DNA of 40,685 nt from a virus: the IMG/VR virus record IMGVR_UViG_3300012979_000010, positions 1 to 40,685 of that record, one strand, 5' to 3'. Below are positions 4,768-38,808 of the stretch, one piece after another. Position 1 is the first letter of the stretch; every line of letters starts with the position of its first letter. The notes beneath the pieces were generated by a model. It made no database searches. It saw only the letters and a program-made list of their open reading frames with translations, and had not been told where the DNA came from. Both the position numbers and the translations under genes were made by a program.

Positions 4768-5949
4768 TCATCCATTCTTCAAGTTATCAAGTATCGCGCG
4801 GATAGTTTCATCCGCGTGTTTTTTGTTGATTTTCACATAGGAAAAAATAGGTCTGTTACCCTTCATAGATTGCCCGATACAATACTCTATACGTTCAAGC
4901 GAAATGCCAAGTTCAAATCCATGTTGGGCGAATGATTTACGCGCGGTGTAGTATATCACATGAGTTTCAATTCCCAACGATTGCGCCAGGATGCCGATGT
5001 ACTTCGTTATGTACTTGCGCAAATTCTCATACGATAGCTTATACCCGAAATCAATCTTCCCATTTCTGCCCATATACCTTTTAATAATAGGCTTCGCTTC
5101 TTCGGGGATAGTAAAGCACACCTTCTTATCGTTTTTCTTGGTGTTTTTCGACTTCTGCCGCTCATATTCCATCGTTGTTTTCCCCTTGAAATTGTACGAA
5201 AGCAAATCAACCATGTTAATGCCGCCAAGATAATATGATAGCATAAACGCATCACGCGCCACAACAAGAGCCTTTGCTTTTGGATCTGAATCGCGGATAA
5301 GCCTTACTTCCTCTACTGATATATCAAGTTCGCGCACTGGAATGGTCGGTTTTTCGTAGTATGCAAAAGGGTGTGTGTCATATTTAACCATGTTGTCGCG
5401 GATTGCCTGGTTTATGACCGCCTTAAGATGCGCCATGTGCGTTCCTCGCGTGGAAGGATTGAGCGAAAGCGCACGCATCATGTATATGTCGAAGTCTTTA
5501 ATTGTTCTTGGGGTAATGCCGTCAAGCATGATATCGTGCTTGCAGAATTCAATAAAATACTTCGATGTCCTGGCATATAGTTGTGCGGTAGATTTCCGAC
5601 CTTCACGGATAAGTGTATCTATGTAATCGTCCGAAGCAAGCGAGTAGGAGGTGGAACCGCTCTTAATGGTGTGCAGATATTCGATAAGCTGCTTGCATGA
5701 GTATGCATGGGTGTTAATCTTATCAAGTGCTTCCTGGTACGAATTAAGAATTGAGCGCAGTTTCATATTTATATAAGGTGCGTTAGGCACATTGACTATC
5801 TGCCCTTGTTGAAGGTCATCGGGGTTGTCAAGCTCAAAGCGAGTTACGATGTATCGCGTTTGTTGGCGATGTCCTACTGCAATTCTGATTTTGTGTTTCC
5901 CAGCCTTGTTGATTTTGGCTGGAACGATGGCAATTCTTAAAGTTGTCAT
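4768..5949 (-). CDS. int: Tyrosine recombinase / phage integrase (Bacteroidetes type with an N-terminal arm-binding domain)
   Basis: 393 aa. The N-terminus MTTLRIAIVPAKINKAGKHKIRIAVGHRQQTRYIVT is typical of Bacteroidetes integrases. It has a SAM-like core-binding region, and the C-terminal catalytic region contains ...ARKSFAQHGFELGISLERIEYCIGQSM.... It lies next to a tRNA-derived attP. Confidence 0.9.
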   Translation of the reverse strand: MTTLRIAIVPAKINKAGKHKIRIAVGHRQQTRYIVTRFELDNPDDLQQGQIVNVPNAPYINMKLRSILNSYQEALDKINTHAYSCKQLIEYLHTIKSGSTSYSLASDDYIDTLIREGRKSTAQLYARTSKYFIEFCKHDIMLDGITPRTIKDFDIYMMRALSLNPSTRGTHMAHLKAVINQAIRDNMVKYDTHPFAYYEKPTIPVRELDISVEEVRLIRDSDPKAKALVVARDAFMLSYYLGGINMVDLLSYNFKGKTTMEYERQKSKNTKKNDKKVCFTIPEEAKPIIKRYMGRNGKIDFGYKLSYENLRKYITKYIGILAQSLGIETHVIYYTARKSFAQHGFELGISLERIEYCIGQSMKGNRPIFSYVKINKKHADETIRAILDNLKNG

Positions 5950-6083
5950 AATTCTGAAAGATTCGTTATGGTAAAGGTAACAATGCCAAAAGTGGAATTG
6001 TTCGGGAGTTTCCCGATTTTTCCCAAAAGCGAAAAAGAGGGTAGAATTGCCTTCAGATGTATGCAGAACCTTTTTTTTGGATG

Positions 6084-6130
6084 TGGAGCGTATCGGACTC
6101 GAACCGATTACCTCGACACTGCCAGTATGG
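6084..6130 (-). other. attP core: 3' half of a tRNA-Ala(GGC) (anticodon stem-loop to discriminator; no 5' half, no CCA)
   Basis: The minus strand reads ccata-CTGGCAG-tgtcg-aggta-ATCGG-TTCGAGT-CCGAT-ACGCTCC-A. This gives an anticodon loop with GGC, a 5-nt variable loop, a perfect T arm, and an acceptor 3' strand with T at position 70 and A73. No D arm or GGGGCGT 5' strand lies upstream. Confidence 0.7.
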
Positions 6131-7068: not shown

Positions 7069-7716
7069 TTACTTTGCAGATAGGCACATTAATACTTTAT
7101 ACATTGAATATATATCATCGTAGAATATGTCGAAATCGTCATAATCGGGGTTGATAGAGTGGCAAGTTATCCTATCATCGTGAATGCTCTTGCGCACGTT
7201 CTTAATTACTACACCATTGCAAGTGTCAAGAACGTATGTTTTCCCCCATTCAATAAATGAGTGGTGGTTTATCCTCTTTATTAGAATTCGGCTTCCATTA
7301 GGATATTCGGGTGTCATTGATTCGCCATATACGGTTATAGCGAAATCTACATTTTCTATTGGCGAAATAACTGCTTCACAATTTTGCAATGTTGTACCAT
7401 TTGCAGAAAATCCATCAAGGCTCCCACCTAAAGCTGATTGTGGTAGTAGATATGTAGTGTATATGCCAAGTTCCTTCAATTCCTCTTTGTTCCCTATATC
7501 TTCAAACATATCCCCTTCGCCAGTCATCAACCACGATGTTTTCACTTCGGGATATGCGTTCTTAATAATCTTGCAAAGGTCGGTACTGATGTTGTTTCTG
7601 CCGTTTAATACGTTCAGAATTCTTGTTTCTCTTTTAAGACCTATTGAACGTGCAAAGCTTGTTGGACTTTCAGCCAAATGCTCTAATAATTGCGATAGCC
7701 AGTGTACATATTTCAT
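7069..7716 (-). CDS. cI/LexA-like phage repressor with a C-terminal S24 autopeptidase domain
   Basis: The C-terminal half has VYGESMTPEYPNGSRILIKRIN...GKTYVLDTCNGVVIKNVRK, i.e. the S24 G(D/E)SM serine motif plus a downstream Lys. The N-terminal part is of HTH size. It is divergent from the early operon. Confidence 0.8.
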   Translation of the reverse strand: MKYVHWLSQLLEHLAESPTSFARSIGLKRETRILNVLNGRNNISTDLCKIIKNAYPEVKTSWLMTGEGDMFEDIGNKEELKELGIYTTYLLPQSALGGSLDGFSANGTTLQNCEAVISPIENVDFAITVYGESMTPEYPNGSRILIKRINHHSFIEWGKTYVLDTCNGVVIKNVRKSIHDDRITCHSINPDYDDFDIFYDDIYSMYKVLMCLSAK

Positions 7717-7777: not shown

Positions 7778-7791
7778 CCAACATTTGTTGG
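7778..7791. promoter_or_regulatory. Perfect inverted repeat CCAACA-TT-TGTTGG (operator candidate) in the divergent switch region
   Basis: Read directly. The half-site-like TTGATGTTGG and TTATTGATG follow at 7792..7810. Confidence 0.45.
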
Positions 7792-7810
7792 TTGATGTTG
7801 GTTATTGATG

Positions 7811-7818
7811 TATATTTG
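7811..7818 (+). promoter_or_regulatory. Bacteroides-type -7 box (TATATTTG) for the rightward early operon
   Basis: Matches TAnnTTTG. It lies between the repressor gene and the first rightward ORF. Confidence 0.4.
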
Positions 7819-8094: not shown

Positions 8095-8112
8095 GCACCC
8101 CTTCGGGGGTGC
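8095..8112 (+). terminator. GC-rich hairpin GCACCCC-TTCG-GGGGTGC (no U tract)
   Basis: Perfect 7-bp stem with a TTCG loop, 8 nt after the stop of the 61-aa ORF. Confidence 0.45.
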
Positions 8113-8317: not shown

Positions 8318-8320
8318 TTG

Positions 8321-8660
8321 CGCGGAGTGCGTTCGGTGGATGCACGGAACGTACTCGGTGGAACCACCGAACAGATACGGCTCTTTTGCGAGTGCTATAT
8401 AATAAGTGGTTTTAGTTTCAAAGCCTTGTGATTGCTAAAGACAAGCACCCGATAGCGAGAATCGGCAAGGCGCGACTTGATTAGTTTTTTGACATTTTGA
8501 ATCTCTCTCATAAGGCACGAAAGTATAATTGCCGACTGGAAGGCAAGCCTACTACGATATAGTCCCGACAGGTCACGATTCCTGCAAGTAACCGTAAAAG
8601 GTTGTCGGGACACGAACAGAGAACTCATACTATTCATTATTACAAATTAGAAAGGTTAAT
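8321..8660 (+). ncRNA. Structured non-coding segment 1 (unknown class)
   Basis: Helices read directly. A 10-bp helix pairs 8325..8334 with 8347..8356 and includes a G:U. It competes with a 9-bp helix pairing 8331..8339 with 8364..8372. Hairpins lie at 8449..8465 and 8529..8546. A perfect 9-bp helix pairs 8562..8570 with 8603..8611. The segment is closed by the terminator at 8666..8695. Confidence 0.4.
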
Positions 8661-8665
8661 ATTCG

Positions 8666-8695
8666 CCGCTTGGTTCGAGAGAATAGAGCGGTTTT
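8666..8695 (+). terminator. Sibling terminator hairpin 1 (most divergent copy)
   Basis: CCGCT...AGCGG followed by TTTT. Confidence 0.5.
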
Positions 8696-8745
8696 AATTA
8701 GTAAAAAACGATTTTCATCATAGTATTTGTTATTAGGTTTTGTTT

Positions 8746-8776
8746 CCGCCTTGTCTGTGAAGATAGGGCGGCTTTC
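8746..8776 (+). terminator. Sibling terminator hairpin 2
   Basis: TTTCCGCCTT-gtctgtgaagat-AGGGCGG-CTTTCAA. Confidence 0.6.
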
Positions 8777-8778
8777 AA

Positions 8779-8885
8779 GGGGTAAGAGGTCAGCACAGAT
8801 TTAATTTACTCTTTTCCATTCAAAGTTATTTCTGATTACACCTATTTGCTGATGGATCTTGGTGGTTCGATTCCACCTACCCCAC
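8779..8885 (+). ncRNA. tRNA minihelix / tmRNA-like mimic A (acceptor stem plus T arm, no D or anticodon arm)
   Basis: T arm GGTGG-TTCGATT-CCACC at 8861..8877. TACCCC (8878..8883) pairs with GGGGTA (8779..8784). An inner helix pairs 8785..8795 with 8847..8859 and encloses a 51-nt AT-rich loop. Confidence 0.5.
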
Positions 8886-8942
8886 AATCAGATGTAACGC
8901 GTCTGATATTTGTAATTTAATTTTCATAATTTGAATTTGTTT

Positions 8943-8973
8943 CCGCCTTGCTCGCGATGAGTAGGGCGGTTTT
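8943..8973 (+). terminator. Sibling terminator hairpin 3
   Basis: TTTCCGCCTT-gctcgcgatgagt-AGGGCGG-TTTTCAA. Confidence 0.6.
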
Positions 8974-9009
8974 CAACAGACATTTATTAATCATTAAAAT
9001 ATAAGCGAT

Positions 9010-9150
9010 ATGGAAGAAATGAAGATGTTTTTTGAGCAGATTCGCAAGGAAGAACAAAGGCGGTCTGTTATGCAAGAGATTGACGAGATTGTTGATGACT
9101 TCAATCATGCGATTGATGAGATTCTTGATAAGCTGAAAGAAAAGAAATAG
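9010..9150 (+). CDS. Small acidic coiled-coil-like ORF (46 aa)
   Basis: MEEMKMFFEQIRKEEQRRSVMQEIDEIVDDFNHAIDEILDKLKEKK. It is the only plausible +strand ORF inside the island and is below the ORF-track cut-off. Confidence 0.4.
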   Translation: MEEMKMFFEQIRKEEQRRSVMQEIDEIVDDFNHAIDEILDKLKEKK

Positions 9151-9238
9151 GCTCGTAGGAGTTGCCAACGCAACCCAAGTTCGGTGGGTGGCAATAGCCA
9201 ATATCCGAAATTAAATCTGGACTGAATTTGCGTGAACG

Positions 9239-9348
9239 AAGCTGATTCCCCTACTTGGCAAGGGGCAGTAATCTGATAAGTACCGAGAATAAAGTAAGTC
9301 AGTGCGAAAGCATACACGTTCGGAATATCGGGAGTGAATAATCAGCTT
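9239..9348 (+). ncRNA. Closed structured RNA domain upstream of tRNA mimic B
   Basis: A perfect 9-bp closing helix pairs AAGCTGATT (9239..9247) with AATCAGCTT (9340..9348). Inside are the hairpin CCCCT/AGGGG (9248..9265) and a GAAA-tetraloop hairpin (9302..9313). Confidence 0.45.
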
Positions 9349-9352
9349 CTTT

Positions 9353-9428
9353 TCCCCTGCTATACGCGAATGGTAGCGCGAAGTGTAATACCTGGGAAAC
9401 AACGGTGGTTCGATTCCACCACAGGGGA
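9353..9428 (+). ncRNA. tRNA mimic B (acceptor, D-like arm and T arm; no anticodon arm)
   Basis: TCCCCTG (9353..9359) pairs with CAGGGGA (9422..9428). The D-like arm is CGCG-AATGGTAG-CGCG (9365..9380). The T arm at 9404..9420 matches mimic A over 17 nt. The 23 nt between the D and T arms form no anticodon stem. Confidence 0.5.
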
Positions 9429-9503
9429 CAACCAATTAGCGAATTGGGGTGTAGAATTAATGTTAGATGTTTAAGAGCATTACATTTTGGATGTATTATT
9501 TTC

Positions 9504-9533
9504 CCACCTCGCTTGTGAAAGTAGGGTGGTTTT
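9504..9533 (+). terminator. Sibling terminator hairpin 4 (carries a compensatory change)
   Basis: TTTCCCACCT-cgcttgtgaaagta-GGGTGG-TTTTCAA. The G:C pair of copies 2 and 3 is replaced by A:T. Confidence 0.6.
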
Positions 9534-9557
9534 CAAGGAACTTAAAAACAACAAGAT

Positions 9558-19670: not shown

Positions 19671-21086
19671 ATGGTAACAATGCAATACCGAAAGGTGGCG
19701 GACATTGCCAAGTTGGAAGGCAATCCGCGAAAGATAGATAAGGAAGATATGGCGCGATTGAAGCAATCCATAGAAGGGTTGCCCGATTACTTTGAAGCGC
19801 ATCCAATAGTCCTTTCAGACAGAACGGGCAAACTTGTTGTTATTGATGGCAACCAACGGCTTGAAGCTGCACGTCAATTAGGGTGGGAAGAAATTCCAAC
19901 CGCCTTGCTATCGGGATTGACCGAAGAAAAGGAACGCGAAATCATTATCCGCGCCAACGTGAACAATGGCGAATGGGATATGGAATTGCTACAAGAGTGG
20001 GACAAGGAGCAGCTTGAAGATTGGGGTGTTGATGTAGAGTGGGAAGAAGAAAACGAAGATATACCAAGCATAGGTGCAAAAGGAAGCCTTGCAGAAAAAT
20101 TTGGTATTATTCCTTTTTCTGTGTTAGACACACGAAAGGGCGAATGGCAAAGCAGAAAGAAAGTATGGTTAGACTTGGGTATAAAGTCAGAGGTAGGACG
20201 GGATGAAAATATGGTATTTGCAAAATCTGTACAAAATACAGCAGTATATGAAGTAAAGAATTATTTAAGAGAGAAACTTAAAAGAGAACCTACATGGGAT
20301 GAAACAATAAAATATTGCGAAGATAAAGGTCTGAAATTGCACAAAGGAACATCTATTTTCGACCCAGTACTTTGTGAGATGATGTATCGTTGGTTTAATG
20401 TTAATGGTGGAGTAGTTATAGATCCTTTTGCTGGTGGAAGTGTTCGCGGCATAGTAGCGGCAAAGCTCGGAATGCATTACAATGGATGTGATTTGCGTCA
20501 AGAACAGATAGCTGCTAATATTGAAAACGGCAAAGAGGTGTTGACAGAAGGAGAGCCTTTCCCAAACTGGGTGTGTGGCGATAGCTGCGACATAGATAAG
20601 CACCTTGAAGGAGTAAAAGCTGACATGATAATGACTTGTCCGCCTTATGCAGATTTGGAGGTATATAGCGACAACCCGAAGGATCTATCTACAATGGATT
20701 ATAAAGACTTTCTTGAAGCATACCGCAAGATTATAAAGAAAACGGCTGATATGCTAAAAGAAAATCGTTTTGCGGTGTTTGTAGTTGGAGAGGTGCGCGA
20801 CAAGAAAGGATATTATTATAATTTTGTCGGCGACACGATAAAGGCTGGTATAGATGCAGGGCTTAAATATTACAACGAAGTAGTATTAGTAAATAATACA
20901 TCTACACTTGCTAATAGATTAGGCAGATACATGAATGTTGGTCGCAAGGTAGGAAAACATCATCAAAACGTAATTATATTTTACAAAGATGGGGGGGCGA
21001 AAAAGATTAAAGATGAATTTCCAACTATTGATTTGCGCGAGGAAGATATAAAGGCGCAAATAGAAGCAGAGGAAGGACTAATTTAA
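19671..21086 (+). CDS. ParB-like nuclease domain fused to a DNA methyltransferase
   Basis: The N-terminus LEGNPRKIDKEDMARLKQSIEGL...VVIDGNQRLEAARQLGWEEIP is a ParB N-terminal-type domain. The C-terminal part has VVIDPFAGGSVRG (motif I) and MIMTCPPYADLEVY (PPY motif IV). Confidence 0.8.
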   Translation: MVTMQYRKVADIAKLEGNPRKIDKEDMARLKQSIEGLPDYFEAHPIVLSDRTGKLVVIDGNQRLEAARQLGWEEIPTALLSGLTEEKEREIIIRANVNNGEWDMELLQEWDKEQLEDWGVDVEWEEENEDIPSIGAKGSLAEKFGIIPFSVLDTRKGEWQSRKKVWLDLGIKSEVGRDENMVFAKSVQNTAVYEVKNYLREKLKREPTWDETIKYCEDKGLKLHKGTSIFDPVLCEMMYRWFNVNGGVVIDPFAGGSVRGIVAAKLGMHYNGCDLRQEQIAANIENGKEVLTEGEPFPNWVCGDSCDIDKHLEGVKADMIMTCPPYADLEVYSDNPKDLSTMDYKDFLEAYRKIIKKTADMLKENRFAVFVVGEVRDKKGYYYNFVGDTIKAGIDAGLKYYNEVVLVNNTSTLANRLGRYMNVGRKVGKHHQNVIIFYKDGGAKKIKDEFPTIDLREEDIKAQIEAEEGLI

Positions 21087-38759: not shown

Positions 38760-38808
38760 TAAAAAATCCCCCTACTATCTTCGCAGACTTCGGGGGGAAG
38801 AACATATT

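Follow-up and report, generated by a model that had tools for sequence, protein, structure and literature searches.

The serial intrinsic terminators tR1-tR4 of lambdoid phages share a GC-rich stem base, a stable tetraloop, a 3' U-tract and an orientation along the direction of transcription, and they are placed one after another before the replication and recombination genes. In the nut and put systems of phages lambda and HK022, a conserved single-stranded tract leads into a hairpin whose loop is of the GNRA type, again in the early operon and upstream of genes under terminator control. Transcripts are also divided by RNase P and RNase Z, which act at transfer RNAs (tRNAs) or tRNA mimics at the junctions of RNA segments, as in mitochondrial tRNA punctuation, the C4 RNA of phages P1 and P7, operon messenger RNAs (mRNAs), MALAT1-mascRNA, the tRNA-microRNA units of MHV68 and engineered polycistronic tRNA-guide RNA arrays. 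For RNase P, a hairpin made of acceptor stem, T-stem and T-loop suffices as a substrate, nucleotides D73-C74-C75 pair with the P15 loop of the enzyme, and phage C4 RNA and operon mRNAs are among the natural substrates that are not tRNAs (PMC11143913). Here we describe an island of 1,240 nucleotides (nt), positions 8318-9557 of IMG/VR virus record IMGVR_UViG_3300012979_000010 (40,685 nt, the whole of which we call the window), that carries four terminator-like hairpins, two tRNA-like elements and a member of the Rfam family DUF2693-FD. We propose that the island is the local form of a non-coding cassette in the immediate-right early operon of Bacteroidota-type temperate phages. What is new is the joining of two known kinds of element, terminators and tRNA-like processing sites, in a hairpin-mimic architecture that is widespread and apparently undescribed.

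The four hairpins lie where the original prediction, made by inspection of the sequence, had placed them. A covariance model (R1), built from the hairpin alignment A4 described below, maps them to 8663-8699, 8743-8779, 8940-8977 and 9501-9537, and on the plus strand of the 40.7-kb window it finds these four copies only (E from 4e-10 to 2e-5). Their stems comprise 10-11 base pairs (bp) capped by G-N-G-A loops and are followed by UUUU or CUUU; folding energies range from -13.5 to -19.6 kcal/mol, with fold z-scores of -3.8 to -4.65 and 0 of 200 shuffles as stable. Copy 1 has a GAGA loop and a U-tract (38.9 bits, E = 1e-8, z = -3.82). Copy 2, with 11 bp, a GUGA loop and CUUUCAA (43.6 bits, E = 4e-10, z = -4.65), stops 7 nt before G+1 of the tRNA-like element F. 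Copy 3, with a 5-nt loop (GCGAU) and UUUUCAA (27.3 bits, E = 2e-5, z = -4.52), lies 33 nt ahead of an open reading frame (ORF) of 46 amino acids (aa) and was outside the training set of the model, yet was recovered by it. Copy 4, with a GUGA loop and UUUUCAA (41.3 bits, E = 2e-9), lies 21 nt ahead of a 66-aa ORF that heads the GerE / ERF / exonuclease operon. The consensus that had been proposed for all four describes copies 2-4, with copy 1 as a looser sibling, and the exchange of a G:C pair for A:U on both sides of the stem in copy 4 (CCGCC/GGCGG against CCACC/GGTGG) is indeed present. Each of the four has the sequence make-up of an intrinsic terminator, that is, a stable GC-rich hairpin followed by a U-tract on the transcribed strand.

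A fifth member of the family lies at 38760-38799 of the window, on the minus strand (22 bits, E = 8e-4), between a block of DUF285 tail-like genes and the holin gene; its apex reads AGUCU-GCGA-AGAU-AG, and six U follow the stem. This copy could halt antisense or convergent transcription, and its place in the late region, on the opposite strand, fits a generic terminator role for the family. An interpretation of the hairpins as a CRISPR repeat or an anti-CRISPR RNA was rejected on their irregular spacing (80, 197 and 561 nt), their functional plus strand and their linkage to tRNA mimics.

Hairpins of the same build recur in other phages. The core 17-mer of DUF2693-FD retrieved at least 120 IMG/VR contigs, and in these loci a hairpin descriptor gave 106 matches against ~3 in shuffles; the corresponding figures were 37 against ~2 in ERF-related loci and 5 against ~0.2 in the window, an enrichment of about 35-fold. 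All 78 matches near DUF2693-FD lie on the strand of that motif, and R1 detects 45 copies in the ERF-related loci, every one on the ERF strand (45/45), 300-750 nt upstream of ERF and often two or three in series. From the base upward, the family consists of a variable lower stem, a 1x1 internal loop with a 3' A, an invariant G.U pair, three pairs and the GNGA loop, with the U-tract behind it. The preserved helix that had first been read from a single compensatory change is borne out among homologues: in A4, an alignment of 34 distinct real copies, 8 of the 10 pairs have changed on both sides. Covariation scores 0.91 in A4 and 0.33 in shuffles, controls with slid partners pair in 33-54%, and 99.7% of cells are paired, the last figure being inflated by the way in which the copies were gathered. 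We rest the argument for a hairpin family on the ~35-fold enrichment and on the turnover of sequence in the lower stem, which is complete between lineages (GTGTGC/GTGCAC, CCTCA/TGAGG, TCCTG/CAGGA, AGCGTC/GGCGCT, TCGGG/CCCGA, CCGCC/GGCGG). All 34 sequences have the G.U pair and nearly all have the 3' A of the internal loop, and the U-tract is kept across lineages, with 4-7 T in the next 8 nt even where the descriptor does not demand T. The occurrence of G.U and U.G pairs indicates that the functional strand is the plus strand RNA, and the conserved U-tract together with the GC-rich stem base makes these hairpins intrinsic-terminator-like. Unlike the described intrinsic terminators, they have an apex that is conserved in sequence across lineages (the G.U pair, the 3' A and GNGA), a short U-tract of 3-6 U, and a next element that begins 4-14 nt behind the hairpin, with no room for a promoter.

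A U/G-rich leader ending in UAUUUGUUAUUAGGUUUUGUUU occupies 8700-8742, ahead of hairpin 2, and related leaders precede the hairpin in most lineages. In L048, L050, L081, L083, L086, L112, L121 and L140, a strongly conserved U/G-rich tract, TTTTGTCGTGTTTTATTTTGTGTTTG, stands 25-35 nt before the hairpins; it departs from the canonical Bacteroidetes promoter in spacing and in the -7 box, and might be a protein-binding site or the seed of a small RNA (sRNA). The 34 distinct regions upstream of hairpins have no -7 box (TAnnTTTG) at a constant spacing, and a separate promoter for each hairpin was rejected on that ground. Eighty-four single matches of a first hairpin pattern in IMG/VR were set aside as chance, none of them conforming to the refined consensus. 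We found no description in the literature of the hairpin family or of its linkage to tRNA mimics and DUF2693-FD; it is apparently both widespread and undescribed.

The second kind of element is tRNA-like. A purely structural descriptor of the tRNA 'top half' (a 7-bp acceptor and, next to its 3' strand, a T-arm whose loop reads TTCRANN) matches the plus strand of the window only at 8778-8884 and 9354-9427, which correspond to elements F (8779-8888) and K (9354-9431). F resembles the top half of a tRNA or transfer-messenger RNA (tmRNA), with a 6-bp acceptor (GGGGUA/UACCCC), a T-arm (GGUGG-UUCGAUU-CCACC), G at +1 and the tail A-C-A-A, and it has an irregular hairpin of ~75 nt in place of the D and anticodon arms (z = -2.47; 3 of 111 columns variable among the relatives described below). 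K is a 76-nt form that ARAGORN reports only at its 80% threshold; it has an intact acceptor, D-arm and T-arm, an anticodon stem that fails to form (3/5 pairs) and once more the tail A-C-A-A. Acceptor and T-stem stack to 6+5 bp in F and to 7+5 bp in K, where there is one C.A mismatch and a C at +1. The sequence GGTGGTTCGATTCCACC is present twice in the island, and each copy is followed by a strand complementary to upstream sequence, giving a T-arm and an acceptor stem. At standard thresholds neither element is a complete cloverleaf: ARAGORN predicts 0 tRNA genes, and the Rfam tRNA model (RF00005) has no match even at E <= 10. Searches of IMG/VR with the exact 3' pattern of the K module and of a genome collection with the K core each returned 0 matches. 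From their retained acceptor stem, T-arm and A-C-A-A tail, we regard F and K as degenerate tRNA mimics. Each is followed directly by a small hairpin, F by hairpin G (8887-8907; a 9-bp stem with a U-rich tail, a terminator-like site, z = -4.14) and K by hairpin L (9432-9447; CCAAUU-AGCG-AAUUGG, 0 of 16 columns variable).

The topology of F, in which acceptor and T-arm are joined by a long helix leaving the tRNA-like domain, is that of the tRNA-like domain of tmRNA, whereas F has neither a tag reading frame nor the pseudoknots and G3.U70 of tmRNA. ARAGORN finds no tmRNA, and the only resemblance at the level of models is a 17-nt T-arm match to beta_tmRNA at 12.7 bits, too little to count F as a member. 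The T4 stable RNAs C and D and the GOLLD and ROOL RNAs beside phage tRNAs are likewise structured phage non-coding RNAs near tRNAs, and the clustering of such RNAs with tRNAs is a known theme (PMC5737381). The Rfam models for tmRNA, GOLLD and ROOL have no match in the island.

Mimics of this kind accompany the hairpin throughout the related phages. Among ~102 contigs with DUF2693-FD and enough downstream sequence, 80 have an aberrant tRNA by ARAGORN on the strand of the motif, 534-2177 nt downstream (median 955), with 'anticodon loops' of 8 to 16 nt; K, ~900 nt from the DUF2693-FD copy of the window, is in the equivalent position. A hairpin with a U-tract stands directly before each aberrant tRNA, and in most lineages its apex is the same as that of the siblings in the window. 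Across the related loci the top-half descriptor gave 461 matches against 27 in shuffles, and 38 of 63 distinct hairpins have a tRNA mimic 4-14 nt behind them; the remaining hairpins, like copies 3 and 4 of the window, sit 20-40 nt before an ORF. The recurrent unit, present in more than 100 related phage contigs, is thus a U/G-rich leader, a hairpin with U-tract, a tRNA top half 4-14 nt on, and then an ORF. L086 has the synteny of the window, with repressor, small ORFs, DUF2693-FD, a mix of non-coding sequence and tiny ORFs, hairpin and tRNA mimic, small ORF and GerE regulator. In L050 and L048, ~1 kb upstream of ERF is non-coding and consists of tandem units of leader, hairpin with U-tract and mimic (four mimics and three hairpins in L050). 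The mimics of L040 are reduced to acceptor/T-arm minihelices of 47-58 nt, with an ORF beginning 13 nt after the second, and in other variants the anticodon arm is swapped for a 4-nt loop or for inserts of ~100 nt. A group I intron in a tRNA as the source of the inserts was rejected, 4 to ~100 nt being too short and Rfam reporting no intron.

Two further observations were made in these loci. At 5843-5870 of L086, ahead of a 61-aa ORF, a lone T-arm-like hairpin (GTAGGTTCGACTCCTAC) with TTTTT behind it looks like a T-arm that serves alone as a terminator-like element. A non-coding motif, GAAATAAGGT..CTATTCGATTAGGGT, is common to L040 (270-305) and L086 (5435-5470), upstream of small early ORFs; it is not in the window, and in L086 it has no match to Rfam at the gathering threshold.

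The 39 distinct hairpin-linked mimics, 52-162 nt long, show which part of a tRNA has been kept. G+1 is found in 34 of 39, A73 in 32, C74 in 37 and A76 in 32, while position 75 and the interval from the D-region to the T-arm are unconstrained. Family-wide, the mimics have the sequence features of an RNase P substrate (PMC11143913), namely ~12 bp of coaxial acceptor and T-stem, a T-loop, G+1, and a discriminator with C74. Hence the conserved part appears to be exactly a minimal RNase P substrate: acceptor, T-stem and T-loop with the 12-bp ruler, the discriminator and C74. With the described RNase P/Z systems the island shares mimics that need only the acceptor/T-arm half, at junctions of RNA segments, and the arrays of L048 and L050 match their tandem alternation of mimic and spacer. 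It differs from them in the conserved terminator-like hairpin right before each mimic and in its setting, the early operon of a temperate phage; cleavage here is a prediction.

At the 5' side of the island, the segment 8422-8472 (plus strand) is a diverged member of the DUF2693-FD RNA motif (Rfam RF02926), with model positions 1-49 of 49 matched and a score of 49.4 bits against a gathering score of 44.5 (E = 1.2e-8). The original prediction had been unable to assign any module to a known RNA family; in fact this one has a family, and F and K are tRNA-like. The motif covers only 51 of the 1,240 nt, the other copies score higher (63-78 bits against 49), and no further Rfam family was found in the island. 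Like the copy in the window, the copies in the at least 120 other contigs sit in phage early regions. Similarity by BLAST around the motif reaches 8500 in more than 60 other phage loci, which covers its conserved 3' extension at 8473-8500 (CTTGATTAGTTYTTTGACATTTTGAAT, 1 of 28 columns variable among relatives). In some phages two copies lie 257 nt apart (L083, 3975-4282; L117, 1504-1811), and the motif can thus undergo tandem duplication. No Pfam match to DUF2693 was found in the 20 window ORFs scanned (those flanking the island, its four minus-strand ORFs and six of the late region), a minority of all ORFs in the window. The motif was published by Weinberg et al. 2017 (PMC5737381), whose main text is silent on it, and we found no published link of DUF2693-FD to downstream hairpins or tRNA-like genes.

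Three further modules are structured. Module A (8318-8415) follows the stop of the 62-aa ORF directly and consists of stacked stem-loops, among them a 14-bp hairpin at ~8325-8356 and a hairpin at 8356-8369, with a minimum free energy of -40.6 kcal/mol (z = -4.65, 0/200 shuffles); changes among relatives are confined to loops or turn G-C into G.U. Module C (8501-8640) is a predicted three-way junction with an upstream hairpin, GUCCCGACA/UGUCGGGAC closing two hairpins (z = -1.94; 6 of 118 columns variable, the changes falling in loops or junctions). Module J (9151-9353), an accessory segment without a match in Rfam, is closed by GAAGCUGAUU/AAUCAGCUUC, followed by UUUU (z = -2.04). The idea that each hairpin closes a highly self-complementary segment holds well for A and G (z of -4.65 and -4.1) and moderately for F, J and C (-2.5, -2.0 and -1.9), and it fails for K and DUF2693-FD, which are thermodynamically unexceptional. 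Alternative pairings or a pseudoknot are hinted at within J, where AUAUCCGAA (9201-9209) is near-complementary to UUCGGAAUAU (9319-9328). A GTTCGG(TGG) motif is repeated at 8331-8339 in module A and at 9178-9190 and 9318-9323 in module J.

Around ten close relatives, 93-100% identical, were collected through exact-protein look-ups with two small ORFs that flank the island, and among them the island is a mosaic. The block 8619-8695 with hairpin 1 is missing in L286 and L291, module J is gained or lost as a whole unit (L289 and L294 lack ~9140-9350), L291, L298 and L301 have an inserted ORF of 84 aa directly on the 5' side of K, and in L297 a coding gene replaces modules A-H. The recombination breakpoints match the edges of modules, that is, the end of the 46-aa ORF, the 5' end of K (the insert of L291 and L298 at ~9352) and the flanks of hairpin 1, with J as 9140-9353. 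This suggests that the conserved hairpins and tRNA mimics are also junctions for modular exchange. Within the hairpins, the loops vary only at the N of GNGA (copy 1 GAGA/GCGA, copy 3 GCGA/GUGA, copy 4 GUGA/GCGA), hairpin 2 of L291 has two adjacent double compensatory changes, and position 7 of hairpin 4 is C.A, C-G, U-A or U.G. K is nearly invariant apart from its 'anticodon' region, a hot spot of variation. Only 3-6% of columns are variable in F, K and C, against 12/43 (28%) at third codon positions of the 46-aa gene, and we therefore conclude that these modules are constrained at the nucleotide level. More distant comparison added little: a query of GenBank phages with the island in distant mode had no match, the ERF-related IMG/VR loci share island sequence no further than DUF2693-FD plus ~30 nt, and homologues of the flanking 66-aa protein form only 3 clusters, without added divergence.

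The coding content of the island is small, as the original prediction had stated: the longest plus-strand ORF between 8317 and 9558 is the one of 46 aa at 9010-9150. It had been called plausible and proves to be a genuine gene for an acidic helical protein, with variable columns of 6/0/12 by codon position in six relatives, changes that are synonymous only in 9 codons, annotation as a gene in relatives too, and no signal of RNA structure over it (z = -0.39). The ORF list and Pfam gave no support to the remaining ORFs; the four on the minus strand have no Pfam match, and decayed or hidden protein genes were rejected as an explanation. The island besides the 46-aa gene is non-coding.

Transcription of the island probably starts at 7784-7818. 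This early rightward promoter, TTTG-N23-TATATTTG, is the only full match to TTTG-N17-23-TAnnTTTG on the plus strand of the whole window, and the box previously noted at 7811-7818 (TATATTTG) is part of it; the promoter is the probable source of every island transcript. The plus strand of the island has no TAnnTTTG. Since there is also no room for a promoter between hairpin and next element, and no -7 box at a fixed distance, the downstream genes are presumably transcribed through the hairpins, with termination partial or suppressed. Serial terminators between the early promoter and the recombination genes had been proposed before, and the terminator-like stems with their retained U-tracts, with no canonical promoter after them, lend this support. 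The original suggestion of several independently terminated small RNAs does not survive the lack of internal promoters and the 7 nt between hairpin 2 and the next element.

The elements themselves, their conservation, covariation, strand bias and adjacency, and the absence of canonical promoters inside the island are the observations on which we build. With DUF2693-FD and two tRNA-like elements among them, the most likely mechanism shifts toward RNA processing at tRNA mimics combined with partial termination. Our best model, which we consider plausible while stopping a little short of calling it probable, is that leaky or regulated intrinsic terminators and cleavage by RNase P/Z at the mimics punctuate the early transcript. 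Transcription across the island would be driven by the single promoter at 7784-7818 and would be stepped down by the four U-tract hairpins, acting as partial (leaky or factor-modulated) intrinsic terminators. The hairpins would also provide stable 3' ends, and nested short RNAs with DUF2693-FD and modules A and C would accumulate. Polymerases that read through would reach F and K, which seem to be pared down to the requirements of host RNase P, and of RNase Z or the CCA-adding enzyme: the acceptor/T-arm stack, G+1 and the A73-C74 tail. Cleavage there would part the upstream, hairpin-ended RNA from the downstream message, free or cap the pieces and uncouple their stabilities: upstream pieces would end in a protective hairpin, and downstream pieces would have a compact tRNA-like cap at their start or just ahead of it. 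The recombination and replication genes would then depend for their expression on passage through the cassette.

Several points weigh against punctuation by termination and cleavage. Termination, its efficiency, read-through and cleavage by RNase P/Z are inferred from sequence, and the descriptor that gathered A4 demanded pairing, so that the fraction of paired cells speaks less strongly than it seems to. A plain terminator leaves the invariant G.U pair, the 3' A of the 1x1 loop and the GNGA loop unexplained. Without a conserved C75, the mimics would make only part of the RCCA contact with RNase P; the acceptor of F has only 6 bp, K has the C.A mismatch and C+1, and both fall below the Rfam and default ARAGORN thresholds. 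Hairpins 3 and 4 precede ORFs, so the coupling of hairpin and mimic is not obligatory.

The conserved apex and the U/G-rich leader suggest a trans-acting binding factor as a candidate, and the alternative that fares best starts here. It holds that the island is a regulated antitermination checkpoint, in which a phage or host RNA-binding protein reads the apex (the G.U pair, three pairs, GNGA and the 3' A), perhaps together with the leader in the manner of boxA plus boxB, and switches the hairpins between a terminating and a non-terminating state that gates the recombination and replication genes. An apex that keeps its sequence (G.U in 34 of 34) above a freely covarying lower stem, with loop changes only at the N of GNGA, speaks for this, and a conserved single-stranded leader ahead of hairpins that stand serially before essential early genes in several lineages, with no promoters downstream, points the same way. 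On the other side, no N-like, Q-like or other RNA-binding protein was found among the neighbouring ORFs, and the opposite-strand copy of the late region (38760-38799) better suits a generic terminator. The loops of the island hairpins are of the GNRA type, like the pentaloop of boxB of lambda nut, but these hairpins are themselves terminator-like, with a U-tract and a stem of 10-11 bp, unlike boxB with its 5 bp; no arginine-rich N-like protein was found among the early ORFs; and, compared by description, the island bears no likeness to the two-stem structure of HK022 put (a cis-acting RNA of ~70 nt just downstream of the promoter, which modifies RNA polymerase). Of the earlier view of serial terminators with antitermination, the serial terminator-like hairpins and the need for read-through thus stand, and membership in the lambda N/nut or HK022 put type is unsupported, given U-tracts unlike boxB, the failure to find an N-like protein and the lack of any Rfam family that matches the hairpins. 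We consider the checkpoint rather unlikely as the whole explanation; it is compatible with punctuation by termination and cleavage and could be layered on it.

Punctuation and a checkpoint both concern the downstream genes, whereas the pieces released could matter in themselves. Mimic, single-stranded U/G-rich segment and terminal hairpin might together form tRNA-scaffolded regulatory sRNAs of ~100-200 nt, released by RNase P; with the variable insert or the U/G-rich segment as seed, they would pair with host or phage mRNAs at A/C-rich regions of translation initiation. The mimic arrays do resemble natural polycistronic tRNA-spacer arrays, the inserts that replace the anticodon arm vary widely in size and sequence, the leader is conserved across lineages, and Rfam classes DUF2693-FD itself as an sRNA. 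Against this, no targets were identified, the L040 mimics are almost without insert, and a leader that is kept even where the mimics differ is equally explicable by protein binding; on balance such sRNAs seem improbable as the main function. A role of the mimics as anti-defence decoys, which at an early stage of infection would titrate or inhibit host defence nucleases directed at tRNAs, or other factors that bind tRNA, would agree with their early-expressed position, with the frequent aberrant anticodon loops in the family and with the variation hot spot in the 'anticodon' region of K among relatives otherwise more than 93% identical. A decoy for an anticodon nuclease should, however, keep its anticodon arm, and many members have none or carry inserts of 4 to ~100 nt there, the conserved portion being the acceptor/T-arm half, which leaves the decoy very unlikely. 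Least probable, in our view, is ordinary debris, whether decayed phage tRNA genes with duplicated generic terminators or a decayed coding region: that F and K fail standard tRNA detection, that hairpin 1 and J are dispensable in some relatives and that L297 has a coding gene in place of modules A-H would suit it, but third codon positions nearby vary 5-10 times more than F, K and C, covariation maintains the hairpin, no island ORF but the 46-aa gene is supported, and more than 100 contigs from different lineages repeat the same architecture with its strand and spacing.

The window as a whole looks like a complete temperate phage of ~40.7 kb. Two minus-strand genes face the rightward early operon: that of an IntDOT-type integrase (4768-5949; Phage_int_SAM_5 and Arm-DNA-bind_5 domains) and that of an S24/LexA-type repressor (7069-7716), from which the promoter at 7784-7818 diverges. 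On the plus strand, the early operon runs from a 61-aa ORF and a 62-aa ORF through the island to two 66-aa ORFs, a GerE/LuxR regulator, ERF, a RecE-like exonuclease, NinB and NinG. The IntDOT-type integrase, the TTTG/TAnnTTTG promoter and the DUF2693-FD motif point to a host among the Bacteroidota. Some other features of the window were noted in passing. A very stable hairpin, GCACCCC-UUCG-GGGGUGC, lies at 8095-8112 between the 61-aa and 62-aa early ORFs, without a U-tract on the plus strand and with its U-rich side on the minus strand. At 6060-6110 (minus strand), ~110-160 nt past the start of the integrase gene, there is the 3' half of a tRNA, with variable arm, T-arm (GGTTCGAGTCC), the acceptor strand ACGCTCC and then A; it is likely the attP core, overlapping a host tRNA gene, and an exact 29-mer from it had 0 matches in the GTDB representative genomes. 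A 471-aa ORF at 19671-21086 (plus strand) is akin to fusion proteins of a ParB domain and a DNA methyltransferase in diverse phages (35-43% identity); it had been considered as a terminase and was rejected as such, being ParB/methylase-like instead.

Temperate phages of Bacteroidota are among the dominant members of the gut virome, and little is known about the timing of their early genes. To our knowledge, their hosts lack initiation led by a Shine-Dalgarno sequence, Hfq and the classic sigma-70 promoter, and for this reason the paradigms of lambda are not directly transferable to them. If our reading is correct, the unit of hairpin and minihelix would be a concrete mechanism for dosing and cutting an early transcript, and the orphan Rfam motif DUF2693-FD would gain a genomic partner and a context. 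Many of the 'odd tRNAs' in phage annotations would then be non-decoding elements for processing or scaffolding, and the engineering of Bacteroides could draw on small natural parts, namely a tunable terminator and minimal RNase P sites. Tentatively, and with distinctly less confidence than in punctuation as such, we suggest that the cassette is a formerly unrecognised modular RNA-processing unit of gut Bacteroidota temperate phages, in which a leader, a factor-recognised, GNRA-capped terminator hairpin and a minihelix cut by RNase P/Z gate the early genes and make tRNA-scaffolded sRNAs, with DUF2693-FD as one component. If so, the cassette would be a natural counterpart of the engineered polycistronic tRNA arrays.

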